IMG/VR virus record: IMGVR_UViG_3300020414_000008 | Span: 116,770 to 180,769 of that record | Direction: 5' to 3' (one strand) | DNA from: a virus | Lineage: Duplodnaviria > Caudoviricetes | DNA: 64,000 bases | Program-made: the position numbers and the translations under genes | Notes under the pieces: model-generated | Seen by the model: only the letters and a program-made list of their open reading frames with translations | Told to the model about the DNA's origin: nothing | Database searches by the model: none | In this document: positions 1 through 62,333 of the stretch, piece by piece | Numbering within the stretch: the stretch's first letter is position 1 | How the letters are laid out: each line of letters starts with the position of its first letter

Positions 1-461
1 AAACAGTTACAAAGATTAAAAGTCTGTTGAAACAGGCTCAAGACCTCGCTCAAGATGAGTTGGGACTTGAAAACATTTTCTACAATGAACGATTTGTCGA
101 ACTTATGATTGCAAATGAATTGGGTCATGAGTACGGTAACAACACACAGGGTGGTGACGCATGGGACCCTGTCAAAAAGAAACCTGTCGAGTATAAAGCA
201 ATAAACTTGAGGAGTAAAGGTAAAGGTACATTTCAGTTTCATTGGTTATCAGAGAACAAGATTAACCAATATAGTCAAACTGAAGATATGTACTTTTGTA
301 TTAGGGATGGTGTTCAAATCAAAGAGATATACAGAGTACCAACCAAAACAGTTATACCTTACCTAAAGGAAAAGTCAACAGGTGGTAAGAGTATCCACGG
401 ACATTGGGGTACTAACAAAGATAAATTAATTAATGAGTTGAACGCAACTAAAGTTATATGA
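1..461 (+). CDS. PvuII-like restriction endonuclease (probably 5'-truncated by window edge)
   Basis: Frame is open from the window start. QDLA..LGLENIF, GGDAWD..VEYKAIN, IKEIYRV and the C-terminal TKVI are co-linear with PvuII as recalled (QDLALKHGINDIF, GNDAVD..YELKSIN, IEAIYRL, GTKIY). Confidence 0.7.
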   Translation, partial: TVTKIKSLLKQAQDLAQDELGLENIFYNERFVELMIANELGHEYGNNTQGGDAWDPVKKKPVEYKAINLRSKGKGTFQFHWLSENKINQYSQTEDMYFCIRDGVQIKEIYRVPTKTVIPYLKEKSTGGKSIHGHWGTNKDKLINELNATKVI

Positions 462-595
462 TAAAGGTAGTAATAGGAACATTAGTCGTTATATGGTTGT
501 GGATTGTATATGAAATGCATATCGCACCCGAGGTTGATGAACACGGTAATAGAATACCCGATGACAAAAAGAGAAAAGGTAAAACTCGTAAATAG
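458..595 (+). CDS. small membrane protein
   Basis: ATGA overlap with the previous stop; MIKVVIGTLVVIWLWIVYEMH TM segment, basic tail; below the ORF-track cutoff. Confidence 0.55.
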   Translation: MIKVVIGTLVVIWLWIVYEMHIAPEVDEHGNRIPDDKKRKGKTRK

Positions 596-1106
596 GTTAC
601 GGAAAACAAAAAGGAACTTTAAAGAAAGTTCTGACTTCCAAGAATTCTTAATAGATTGTTATCTATTTCTTGGTCCATCTGCATACGGTAGTCGTATTGA
701 GAAAAGGTGGATAAAAGAAATGGGTTACAAAAAAATGTCTACATATAATCGTGGAGATTATATGGATGGTGACGAGTATGTGGAGTTCAAAGCATCGTAT
801 GAATCATTCGATAGATATACATTCTTACACATAAGACCACATGAAGATGTTGACAGGTATGACCTATTTACAGTAGATAAAAAATTTAAACACAACGTAT
901 ATAGTATACCAAAAGAAAAAATAGGAGACTTCATTTACAACAAAAAATTATTGAGTGGTGTTTGTAATGGAACTTCTGAAGCAAACGAAAACAATCAAAC
1001 GGTTGAATACAGGTTCACTATCAAGAAAAACCAATTGGAATTGTTGGAACCCTATTTAACTACAGGAAAAAAAATGAAAAAAACATACGAAAAGTTTTGG
1101 AAATAA
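561..1106 (+). CDS. putative PD-(D/E)xK endonuclease
   Basis: GSRIE helix followed by RGD..YVEFKAS catalytic-type motif; ATG 561 preferred over TTG 504. Confidence 0.5.
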   Translation: MTKREKVKLVNRLRKTKRNFKESSDFQEFLIDCYLFLGPSAYGSRIEKRWIKEMGYKKMSTYNRGDYMDGDEYVEFKASYESFDRYTFLHIRPHEDVDRYDLFTVDKKFKHNVYSIPKEKIGDFIYNKKLLSGVCNGTSEANENNQTVEYRFTIKKNQLELLEPYLTTGKKMKKTYEKFWK

Positions 1107-60114: not shown

Positions 60115-60122
60115 AGGTAAGT

Positions 60123-62333
60123 ATGGATAAGAACCAACTCAAACACATCATTAAGGAAGAGTACCAAAATGTTAAATCATTTATGGAAGACAAATATGGA
60201 TTCACACCTGAGTTAGGTAAAGTGATTTCTAATCCTTACGCAAAGTCATTTGTAAACGAAGTATCTGAACCTGAAGTAATTTCACAATTAAGAGATATCG
60301 TTAATAAAAAACAAAACAAAAAAATCAAAGACCCAAAGAGTGGTAAAATGATGAGAGTTGATATGTTCTCAGCATCAGCAGTTACTAAAGTGTATGATGC
60401 AATCAACAAATCTAACAAAGAAAAGTTTTCAAAACTATCTTTACCTAAAATGGTAAATGTCGCATTTACTGTAATGAAGAAAGAATCAGTAAACGAATTA
60501 TTAGTGATAGTAGATAAGTTTGATAAAAACAAACAAGACTATGGTAAAATCTATTACCGAGATGGTGGTAACAGACCAGGCGATGGTGATATCAACAAAG
60601 CAAATAAAGAGTTAGAAAAGTTAAGTAAGAAACACAAAGGTTTAACTCTTGTATCAGTTGGTAGAAATAGTAAGATGTATGATGTAAATGAATCACTAAA
60701 TGAAGCTAAATACAAACATACTTACAAATCTATAACTGACCAACAAAAAGATTTAAAAAGAATATTTCCAAGTGGTCACCCAAGAGTTAGTGTAAAAGCA
60801 TATCACGATATGAATCCACAAGGTAAAATGAAAACCTCTTATGTAGAAATAGAAGGTCCATCATCATATGTTGACGCATACAAAAAAATGGCATTCAATG
60901 GTAAAAAAACTATGAGAGATGTTATTAAGTTTGTAGAAAAGAACGAATCAGTAAATGAAGAATTCAAATCAAAAGATTCTACCTTTGAAAAAGTATATGG
61001 TATCTTTGATAAGCGAGATTACTTTAATAACAAAGGATTTGCAAAAACTCAAATCGGAAACTTTGAAAGAGCATTACAAAAAAAAGATAAAGGTGCACAA
61101 CAAATCTTAGATAAGTTCAAAGGTGATGTGAATAAGGCAAAAGATTATATTTTCCAAGTTCTCATAGATAGAAGAAAAGAAGAATCTTTTAACGATTACA
61201 AAGCATTCAAGGCAGCAGTTGATTCAATTCAAAAAGGAAAACCAATTCCTGGCGCCGTTGATTTAGTAAAAAGAAGAATTCATAATAATTCACAAAAATA
61301 TACGATGGCTCTTTATAGTGCACTTCGTAATCAAAAATTTAATAAGTGGAAAGATATCCATACTGATGTAGATTCTTTAATTGGTGAATCAGTAAACGAG
61401 GCATATATTGTATTGTACGCACCAAAAAAAGGAGTGAAGCCAGTAACAACCGCAGCTTACAAAGATAAGAAAGACGCTGAAAAGTGGGCGAAAGATTTAG
61501 GTGGTGTCACAATGATTATTAAAAGAAAAGTAAAAGGTATCGATGAAGGTAAGAAAAGATACTACCAAAAAGATGGTATTGGTAAAGCAAAATACACAAT
61601 CTCTTACCACGATGGAAAAAAGACACACAAAGATGGTAGTGATTTCTTTGATATCCAAATTTTCAAAAATAAAAAAGATTTAGCAAAGTTTGTAAATACT
61701 TTACATAAAGCTGGTTATGTTTATGGATTTAATGAAGGTGTAAATGAAGGTGTATTCTCTAACTTAGACCTAATCAGACAAAATTCTAAAGACGCAAGAG
61801 ATTTTATCAAGAATGTATTTAAAGATGATGATTTTAAAGATATGAAGAACGACAGAGAGTTTTTAAAGTATCTTAAATCTATCTACGAAGGATTTGCAAG
61901 TGACGCACAAAGAAGAGCAGCATTTGCAAGTGGATATAAAGCAAAAGGTAAAAAGGGTAAGAAAAAAGAATCAATAGAAGAATATGATGTAGAAAATTAC
62001 CAAGACGTAAAAGAATTCATAGAATTTATGAGAGAATATGAAAAAGACCCTTACGCGTTAAATCCTACTGTAAATGAGGCAGAATATCAAGGTAGAGATG
62101 TTAAACTTGGTAAGATTATGCAAGGTGACGTTAAAAAGTTTAAAGTTTATGTTAAAAACCCAAAAGGTAATGTAGTAAAAGTAAACTTTGGTCACAAAGG
62201 TAAAGGTGGTGAAAAAACCATGAGAATCAAAAAGTCTGACCCTGCAAGAAGAAAAGCATTTAGGTCAAGACATAATTGTGACAATCCTGGTCCAAGACAC
62301 AAGGCAAGATATTGGGCTTGTAGAACTTGGTAA
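60123..62333 (+). CDS. modular protein (candidate internal head polyprotein)
   Basis: About 10 ES(V/L)NE-type junctions; C-terminal AEYQGR..VNFG..RHNC..ARYWAC domain. Confidence 0.75.
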   Translation: MDKNQLKHIIKEEYQNVKSFMEDKYGFTPELGKVISNPYAKSFVNEVSEPEVISQLRDIVNKKQNKKIKDPKSGKMMRVDMFSASAVTKVYDAINKSNKEKFSKLSLPKMVNVAFTVMKKESVNELLVIVDKFDKNKQDYGKIYYRDGGNRPGDGDINKANKELEKLSKKHKGLTLVSVGRNSKMYDVNESLNEAKYKHTYKSITDQQKDLKRIFPSGHPRVSVKAYHDMNPQGKMKTSYVEIEGPSSYVDAYKKMAFNGKKTMRDVIKFVEKNESVNEEFKSKDSTFEKVYGIFDKRDYFNNKGFAKTQIGNFERALQKKDKGAQQILDKFKGDVNKAKDYIFQVLIDRRKEESFNDYKAFKAAVDSIQKGKPIPGAVDLVKRRIHNNSQKYTMALYSALRNQKFNKWKDIHTDVDSLIGESVNEAYIVLYAPKKGVKPVTTAAYKDKKDAEKWAKDLGGVTMIIKRKVKGIDEGKKRYYQKDGIGKAKYTISYHDGKKTHKDGSDFFDIQIFKNKKDLAKFVNTLHKAGYVYGFNEGVNEGVFSNLDLIRQNSKDARDFIKNVFKDDDFKDMKNDREFLKYLKSIYEGFASDAQRRAAFASGYKAKGKKGKKKESIEEYDVENYQDVKEFIEFMREYEKDPYALNPTVNEAEYQGRDVKLGKIMQGDVKKFKVYVKNPKGNVVKVNFGHKGKGGEKTMRIKKSDPARRKAFRSRHNCDNPGPRHKARYWACRTW

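Follow-up and report, generated by a model that had tools for sequence, protein, structure and literature searches.

Flank-dependent avoidance of restriction sites in a marine T4-like phage genome suggests a protective mark at GpC

Genome and window

The DNA examined here is the final 64 kb (positions 116770-180769, hereafter the window) of IMGVR_UViG_3300020414_000008, a 180,769-bp IMG/VR viral record that we call G000. Its subject is an anti-restriction footprint in which a set of short restriction-enzyme target words is nearly missing from the DNA, and several of these words survive almost exclusively where their first C follows a G. G000 has a G+C content of 34.6% with almost all genes on a single strand, and encodes the gp20 portal, gp23 capsid, prohead protease, gp32, UvsX, sliding clamp and clamp loader, family-B polymerase and PhoH of a distant T4-like myovirus. 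The closest named relatives of the capsid protein are from Microcystis phage Mel-JY01 (57%) and Flavobacterium phage immuto (54%). Relatives of G000 come from marine metagenomes, Tara samples among them, and a megablast search of the window against GenBank phages gave no match. In the closest relatives (loci L173 and L174), whose terminase is 97-98% identical, the counterpart of genome position ~179154 is joined directly to the counterpart of position 1. Because the contig ends abut in these relatives, the contig is effectively a closed genome.

Depletion of restriction-enzyme target words

Word counts were compared with a null model in which synonymous codons are shuffled within each gene, such that proteins and per-gene codon usage are kept (200 shuffles for the genome and 100 for window positions 1-62280). 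Counts are written as observed/expected and generally refer to the whole genome unless the window is named. By this measure depletion is strongest for four tetramers, GATC (0/443), CTAG (17/304), CCGG (13/80) and CCAG with CTGG (179/678). The corresponding window values are 0/159 for GATC, 9/122 for CTAG and 2/29 for CCGG. Other purged words include GGAGG/CCTCC (1/168), CGWCG (7/68), TTATAA (1/93), ACATGT (0/28), TACGTA (0/30) and AAGCTT (3/28). Non-palindromic words are depleted in both orientations, as seen for GGAGG (1/143) and CCTCC (0/24), and for CGACG (5/55) and CGTCG (2/14), which argues that a translational effect is not responsible. In all, about a dozen restriction-enzyme target words are almost wiped from the genome, which constitutes restriction-site avoidance.

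An earlier model-made reading of the window, here termed the first-pass annotation, had noted that GATC is absent and that Asp is written GAC before Pro, Gln and His. Both observations extend to the full genome, where GATC has no occurrence in 180,769 bp and Asp before a C-initial codon is encoded 308 times by GAC and never by GAT. Before codons beginning with A, G or T, by comparison, GAT is used for ~70% of Asp residues. The same annotation had held that sites containing GpC are kept, and this is borne out only in part. AGCT (45/102), TGCA (132/240) and CAGCTG (3/7) are depleted about two-fold, and only GCNGC is at expectation, because it is fixed by Ala-Ala codons.

Survival of sites next to GpC

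The copies of C-initial words that remain in G000 share a flanking context. CYRG sites lacking both a 5' G and a 3' C (HCYRGD; HCCWGGD and HCGWCGD are defined likewise) are reduced to 34/860, whereas GC-flanked CYRG sites are not depleted (175/205). Among the 34, there are 29 that read GCCTGG or CCAGGC and four that lie in a terminal 1.7-kb cassette described below. Within window positions 1-62280, HCYRGD sites number 12/320 and GC-flanked CYRG sites 68/81. All 12 of the former are GCCTGG or CCAGGC; about a dozen cases of this kind had been set apart in the first-pass annotation because GpC is only adjacent to the tetramer. Its positions and contexts for CTAG, CCGG and CCAGA/TCTGG were likewise correct at every coordinate (Table 1), and the departure of CYRG flanks from the shuffled expectation is the outcome of the comparison that it had proposed.

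The same split is seen for CCWGG, which exhibits 2/95 unflanked copies versus 93/19 copies in the form GCCWGG or CCWGGC (0/38.5 versus 42/8.8 in window positions 1-62280). Every one of the 93 coding CCWGG sites corresponds to a Pro-Gly pair, and 92 of the 94 Pro-Gly pairs are GC-flanked. This shielding is accomplished by a preceding codon ending in G for 56 pairs and by the Gly codon GGC for the other 36. GGC is otherwise rare in this genome, with 68 occurrences compared to 3007 for GGT, and 36 of the 68 come after a Pro codon. Thus, where the protein forces a CCWGG site, the neighbouring codon is chosen to create GC, which is active recoding of the kind that the first-pass annotation had described.

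Other words conform to the same pattern. All 13 CCGG sites in the genome read GCCGG, with HCCGGD at 0/59, and HCGWCGD is at 0/56.9 versus 7/11.7 for GC-flanked CGWCG. Six unrelated words (CTAG, CCGG, CCWGG, CCAGW, CGWCG and CCTCC) therefore follow one rule, in that the survivors have their first C after a G on at least one strand. The base at position -2 is free, with all four bases tolerated. For this reason RGCY was ruled out as the motif, and the context is best described as NGC.

The depleted CYRG words do not behave as one target. GCCTGG and CCAGGC, in which GC lies one base outside the CYRG tetramer, are enriched (29 versus 9.6 expected), whereas the same geometry in the form of GCCCAGW/WCTGGGC, GCCTAG/CTAGGC and GCCCGG/CCGGGC is missing (0 versus 11.2 expected). 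This unequal tolerance indicates that CCWGG (with its outer C as the shielded position), CTAG, CCGG and CCAG-not-G act separately. The split is supported by related genomes, many of which purge CTAG, and some CCGG, without touching CCAG or CTGG.

Only five sites in the 180 kb break the rule, and four of them are located in the terminal cassette (tCCTGGt at window position 62287, aCCAGa at 62789 and 63725, and cCTAGa at 63743). The sole TTATAA of the genome is also found there (62961), and all of these window exceptions fall just beyond the coordinate at which the first-pass annotation ended its claim. The cassette carries a DUF6734 gene that is 42% identical to the DUF6734 gene at the opposite contig end (genome 1-1700, locus L001), and relatives hold one or the other. 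In L175, L177 and L182, the terminal cassette stands in place of the first-1.7-kb cassette, and CCAG/CTGG is not avoided. Given this distribution and the 42% identity, the two ends are alternative alleles that the assembler put at opposite ends of the contig. The disregard for the CYRG and TTATAA purges indicates that the terminal cassette derives from a lineage under other restriction pressure.

Table 1. Coordinates of surviving sites and other features in G000 (window numbering unless noted)
Feature	Location	Strand	Remarks
Footprint domain	1..62286		Part of a genome-wide domain; GATC absent, C-initial words survive as G-C
CTAG survivors	2787, 7199, 24455, 30622, 38642, 48877, 52641, 53365, 56652		All GCTAG or CTAGC (2787 is CTAGC)
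CCGG survivors	32948, 56861		Both GCCGG
CCAGA/TCTGG survivors	4666, 11380, 11945, 33601, 43049, 52581		All GCCAGA or TCTGGC
CGWCG survivors	14973..14977, 27001, 33632, 42688, 49640, 55723, 56797		All GCGWCG or CGWCGC (first is GCGACG)
GGAGG/CCTCC survivor	37468..37473		Only copy in genome; GGAGGC (GCCTCC on other strand)
DUF6734 cassette	62287..64000		Allelic to the contig's first 1.7 kb; contig end of different history
Thymidylate synthase	1299..2096	+	Assigned by motifs (PCH, PFN-Asn); 301-bit match; not a dCMP hydroxymethylase
FkbM-family (Methyltransf_21) methyltransferase	3656..4228	+	S-adenosylmethionine (SAM)-dependent type; weak candidate writer
Methyltransf_24 protein	9105..9731	+	Weak candidate writer; matches PHROG families labelled 'DNA methyltransferase'
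UbiG-like SAM methyltransferase	genome 66259-66882 (outside window)		207 aa; best local candidate writer; between DNA polymerase and sliding-clamp genes

Recurrence of the exemption in related genomes

Six further genomes of the clade were put together from IMG/VR, and the exemption for CTAG or CCGG recurs in six related genomes. Survivors are given here as GC-flanked/other for the five with tabulated counts. CTAG survivors number 62/6 in G001 (a complete genome with terminal repeats), 61/3 in G002 and 76/2 in G007, and CCGG is not purged in any of these three. In G006, which has 89.9% nucleotide identity to G000, the values are 3/0 for CTAG and 7/0 for CCGG, and in G011 they are 31/3 and 31/2. 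CGWCG survivors are shielded in G001 (three of three) and G002 (four of four). A more distant genome, G003, serves as a control: its CCGG is purged in both contexts (2/18.8 and 1/66.8, observed/expected), and its CTAG sites exhibit no exemption.

The sets of purged words vary among these phages. CATG is purged in G007, CTTAAG and GGTACC are purged in G001, G002 and G007, and purging of TTATAA and CCWGG/CCAGW is found only in G000 and G006. These differences between close relatives point to different host restriction repertoires, with the GC exemption remaining constant along the phage phylogeny.

A second exemption is evident in some relatives. The GATC sites that survive in G001 (L109-L117; 20 of 20) and G002 (L123-L132; 12 of 13) read GATCCHG, and those in G009 (L157-L161) are mostly GATCC. 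Survival restricted to GATCCHG implies that a further mark, placed on C within CCH(G), overlaps these sites. G000, with no GATC left, lacks it, and the exemption indicates that overlapping marks operate in this clade.

Deficit of GpC at codon junctions

GpC spanning the junction between codons is the most depleted of the 16 junction dinucleotides in G000 (222/702, a ratio of 0.32, z = -25), and the ratio in G001 is 0.54. GT (1.43) and AC (1.18), into which GC would turn by transition, are in excess at junctions, which is partly forced by the fixed margins of the shuffle. Across ~40 loci of relatives, junction-GpC ratios are 0.3-0.75 where CTAG survivors are GC-flanked and mostly 0.9-1.5 where there is no exemption. 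The deficit spans GCA, GCC, GCG and GCT. A specificity limited to GCB, suggested by CATG in G007, is not supported, because junction G|CA is equally depleted. GpC is thus sought beside restriction sites and shunned elsewhere, a combination that fits a protective mark with a cost.

As a separate observation, avoidance exceeds the general deficit for GpC sites that lie close together or read AGC, with GCNNGC at 6/34 (five-fold) and junction AGC at 34/291 (eight-fold) over the whole genome.

A probable protective mark at GpC and its alternatives

Both the footprint of restriction-site avoidance and the unusual standing of GpC are well established. The interpretation that we consider probable, reading from the sequence pattern, is that GpC in virion DNA bears a modification by which overlapping restriction sites are protected, and that sites out of its reach have been purged. 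In this mechanism, a post-replicative modification would be placed on GpC cytosines in the packaged DNA, presumably on both strands because GpC is its own complement, and a marked first C would block the restriction enzymes whose sites overlap it. Words beyond the reach of GpC (GATC, TTATAA, ACATGT and TACGTA) are removed fully or nearly so. C-initial words (CTAG, CCGG, CCWGG, CCAG-not-G, CGWCG and CCTCC) are removed unless their C has a G before it on one strand or the other. GpC is kept scarce elsewhere, which suggests that the mark is costly, for example through attack by modification-dependent nucleases. Cytosine is the likely modified base, given that shielding falls on the first C in each word, and modification of the paired G or of the G-C phosphate is possible instead.

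This reading draws on the agreement of independent words, on the related genomes and the G003 control, on the junction-GpC deficit, and on the precedent of known phage GpC methyltransferases. Phage C5-methyltransferases prefer GpC or GpC[C/T], and M.CviPI is a GpC enzyme (PMC8256090). Short motifs of cytosine methylation occur in marine myovirus-like genomes, for the most part with no enzyme matched to them (PMC8919816). Doubt has been expressed that a GpC-limited mark could give broad protection (bioRxiv 10.1101/2023.12.21.572611). Relative to the first-pass annotation, which had proposed modification by a phage GpC system, the flank-dependent avoidance stands and a GpC mark is the most economical explanation. 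Its single CYRG nuclease and its M.CviPI-like enzyme are not supported.

Several results weigh against a GpC mark. Sites that contain GpC are still depleted (AAGCTT 3/28, AGCT at a ratio of 0.42 and TGCA at 0.63). In G007 (167 kb; L148-L156), CATG is at 0/272 and GC-flanked CATG is also at 0/48, which would require either that the CATG nuclease ignores the mark or that GCA is unmarked. Between G000 and G006 (71 kb aligned at 89.9% identity), C-to-T changes are no commoner at GpC than elsewhere; among synonymous third positions, the C-to-T ratio is 0.50 for GC versus 0.41-0.56 for other contexts, a small sample of 20 conserved and 10 changed sites. By this comparison the GpC deficit lacks the signature of 5-methylcytosine deamination and does not look like mutational decay.

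The remaining difficulties concern the enzyme. Searches of the effectively closed G000 genome for C5 (PF00145), N4/N6 (PF01555) and D12 (PF02086) methyltransferases and for TET/JBP, TGT and Mom (PF25680) proteins found none. Scanning all six frames for PCQxFS and DPPY-type motifs yielded chance matches only, with no PCQ-type motif. The best local candidate writer, the UbiG-like methyltransferase listed in Table 1, has a structure model (pLDDT 94) whose Foldseek matches are generic class-I, UbiG-, HEN1- and Bud23-like proteins, with no DNA methyltransferase among the matches listed. Finally, the complete genome of G001 exhibits the exemption and is without C5 and N4 methyltransferases, the UbiG-like enzyme and the Methyltransf_24 protein, so that no single recognized writer explains the clade.

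This last group of results would be accommodated if the GpC mark were written by an orphan core methyltransferase common to all hosts and inherited in each phage generation. No canonical DNA cytosine methyltransferase was found in G000, nor in G001, G002 or G011, which are complete or nearly so, and no recognized writer is common to all exemption genomes. To our knowledge, no bacterial GpC-specific orphan methyltransferase has been described. The purged words also differ between genomes (CATG in G007; CCWGG/CCAGW in G000 and G006; CTTAAG/GGTACC in G001 and G002) while the exemption tracks the phage phylogeny, and only M.CviPI and phage enzymes are named for GpC specificity in PMC8256090. We therefore regard a host-written mark as improbable. 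Less plausible still is the absence of any modification, with host nucleases that intrinsically reject a flanking G or C and whose true sites are HCTAGD, HCCGGD, HCCWGGD and HCGWCGD. Enzymes with 'not-X' flank rules exist, such as PspXI, which recognizes VCTCGAGB, and for any one word sequence alone cannot tell a flank rule from an overlapping modification. However, one and the same rule would have to hold for five or more unrelated words, GCCGG is purged from G003 just as fully as CCGG in other contexts, and both the clade-specific three-fold junction-GpC deficit and the seven-base GATCCHG exemption would be left unexplained.

The pairing put forward in the first-pass annotation, of one CYRG nuclease countered by an M.CviPI-like phage GpC C5-methyltransferase, has in its favour that the four CYRG words rank directly behind GATC among the depleted tetramers and jointly form one self-complementary class. 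It is nevertheless very unlikely, given that GCCTGG/CCAGGC is enriched even though the tetramer C is unshielded and equivalent geometries are missing, that relatives purge CTAG or CCGG without CCAG/CTGG, and that no C5-methyltransferase is encoded. A scenario of self-avoidance, in which the phage uses its own short-site nucleases against host DNA and has purged their sites from itself, can point to the Endonuclease_NS, the PD-(D/E)XK nuclease and the many unknown proteins of G000. A dozen words would require a dozen such nucleases, though, and no restriction-type enzyme was recognized among the encoded proteins. The enrichment of GC flanks would also go unexplained, and we give this scenario almost no credence.

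Candidates for the writer

If the virion DNA does carry a GpC mark, its writer is probably encoded by the phage, since the purged words change by genome but the exemption stays with the phage lineage. The first-pass annotation placed the modifying enzyme outside the window and proposed a genome-wide search for C5 and N4 cytosine methyltransferases. With none encoded, an M.CviPI-like enzyme is not present in G000. C5-cytosine methyltransferases (PF00145) are missing from G000 and from eight relatives, in a search that did detect them in control genomes. The same approach picked up Mom genes in relatives and, in G003, an N4/N6 enzyme. Concealment of the writer in a supposed missing 6% of the genome is ruled out because the contig ends abut in relatives. 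Pfam and PHROG scans of ~110 open reading frames revealed only small-molecule-type methyltransferases (Methyltransf_24 twice, FkbM and Methyltransf_11/25-like), and the 2-oxoglutarate oxygenases of G000 are of the prolyl-hydroxylase or PhyH type. T4-type replacement of every C by hydroxymethylcytosine is excluded because the ThyA homologue is a true thymidylate synthase.

Two of the window proteins are weak candidates. The FkbM-family gene is the only methyltransferase present in all larger exemption genome records and missing from the control genome. Its presence/absence pattern is shared by ~45 further genes, including the adjoining collagen-like and GT25 genes, and the protein is more likely a glycan methylase. 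The search for a common writer by presence and absence thus gave ~46 genes, mostly small unknowns together with FkbM, and was not discriminating. PDB sequence searches with three of these genes found nothing. The Methyltransf_24 protein is weakened as a candidate by its absence from the exemption genome G001.

The UbiG-like methyltransferase is encoded in a replication neighbourhood (genome 63718-69126; L004:3718-9126) with the gene order polymerase, UbiG-like methyltransferase, sliding clamp and a glycosyltransferase (GT)-B-like protein. Three of these products end in similar C-terminal tails: ..ASQFFGF in the family-B polymerase, ..NKFFSFD in the methyltransferase and ..SNKFF in the 496-aa GT-like protein encoded after the clamp at genome 67636-69126. 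Among homologues of the methyltransferase, a short aromatic tail is retained behind a linker that varies. A conserved hydrophobic or aromatic C-terminal tail of this sort, set behind a flexible linker, is also typical of clamp-tethered DNA enzymes with PIP-like or T4 gp43-type ends. The predicted local distance difference test (pLDDT) value of the enzyme model was 48 at first and rose to 94 with a 56-sequence alignment. A complex prediction for the methyltransferase tail with the clamp scored 0.54 versus 0.05 for the best of three controls, a result graded as weak support, and is not counted as evidence. Of 78 solved complexes, 51 attained the mark set for such predictions, as did 2 of 108 mismatched pairs, and scores of 0.60 or below comprise 5 of the 78 solved complexes together with all 4 passing mismatches. 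The clamp-tail runs agree in at least 56% of contacts with a partner pLDDT of ~40, and the score may reflect likeness to the solved phage clamp-peptide complexes that exist. A homologue of the methyltransferase (P0038) is filed under a Candidatus Marinimicrobia metagenome-assembled genome, which gives a weak clue to the host group. Methylation at CTAG and CTCC motifs is recorded for marine Marinimicrobia (PMC8919816).

Mom-family genes (PF25680) are found in two or three tandem copies in G001, G002, G007, G011-G013, G015 and G016, with the two tandem copies of G001 located just upstream of the polymerase gene. The UbiG-like methyltransferase and Mom genes are mutually exclusive across 15 genomes, and G000, G009 and about twenty fragments carry the methyltransferase with no Mom gene. 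This exclusive distribution makes the polymerase neighbourhood look like a swap site for DNA-modification cassettes. A tentative and rather doubtful proposal is that this lineage writes its GpC mark with enzymes outside the known DNA-methyltransferase families. These might be the UbiG-like methyltransferase in G000, possibly together with the GT-B-like protein and tethered to the clamp by FF tails, and the tandem Mom-family proteins in sister phages. The co-evolved genome would then be nearly immune to many restriction systems.

Relation to known systems

GATC-free virulent phages resemble G000 in that palindromes are depleted on both strands relative to a codon-preserving expectation and in that the purged set varies between relatives. 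Unlike theirs, the avoidance in G000 depends on flanks, with sites kept, and even built by rare codons, within GpC. No description of such flank-dependent, GpC-embedded avoidance was found in the literature searched. New in this analysis are the exemption at CGWCG and CCTCC, the recurrence in relatives, and a junction-GpC deficit that occurs only in exemption genomes.

The closest enzymatic parallel is phage hypermodification by C5-methyltransferase, TET and glycosyltransferase, in which clade I enzymes methylate GCC, GCT and GCG, the shielded contexts of G000 (PMC8256090). The parallel is incomplete, as G000 has no PF00145 or TET/JBP gene and its GpC deficit also covers GCA. M.CviPI from chlorella viruses is also a viral enzyme specific for GpC, but it comes from a eukaryotic algal virus, has a canonical C5 fold and has no homologue in G000. 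Phage Mu Mom is a GNAT-fold protein (PF25680) with tandem family members in relatives of G000, and G000 has none yet exhibits the strongest footprint. Mu Mom acts on adenine, and the GCCGG exemption is not explicable in that way. The laboratory rule of Dam/Dcm overlap blocking involves the same principle, whereby a mark of one specificity shields a partly overlapping site. In G000, this principle has apparently been exploited by evolution on a genome-wide scale.

Sparse, sequence-limited phage marks such as the GpC of Burke et al. 2021 have previously been hard to explain (PMC8256090). G000 suggests how a mark restricted to GpC could protect broadly, if sites that it cannot cover are deleted, unavoidable sites are recoded, and the marked dinucleotide is made rare elsewhere. 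The footprint yields concrete predictions for ~200 named sites. Since nothing more than sequence is needed to recognize it, it could help to pick out phages whose modifications are unknown, and to deduce the mark motif as well as the host restriction repertoire of uncultured viruses. With no canonical enzyme present, the lineage may hold a new class of DNA-modifying enzyme.

Other features of the genome

A GroEL-type chaperonin (Cpn60, 231 bits) is encoded at genome 107706-109301 (L006:7706-9301) and adjoins a DnaJ-like protein. Glycosylation genes are very numerous and are located at genome 60.7-63.5, 73-89 and 21-32 kb (L002, L004 and L005). This set includes a UDP-galactopyranose mutase, many GT2 and GT4 proteins, a CMP-sugar synthetase fused to an HMGL-like domain, an MptE-like protein and epimerases. 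Next to these genes lie those for several 2-oxoglutarate oxygenases and for two collagen-repeat proteins, both longer than 1100 aa. Two neighbouring DUF2589 paralogues at window 7332-8546 are without a counterpart in G001.

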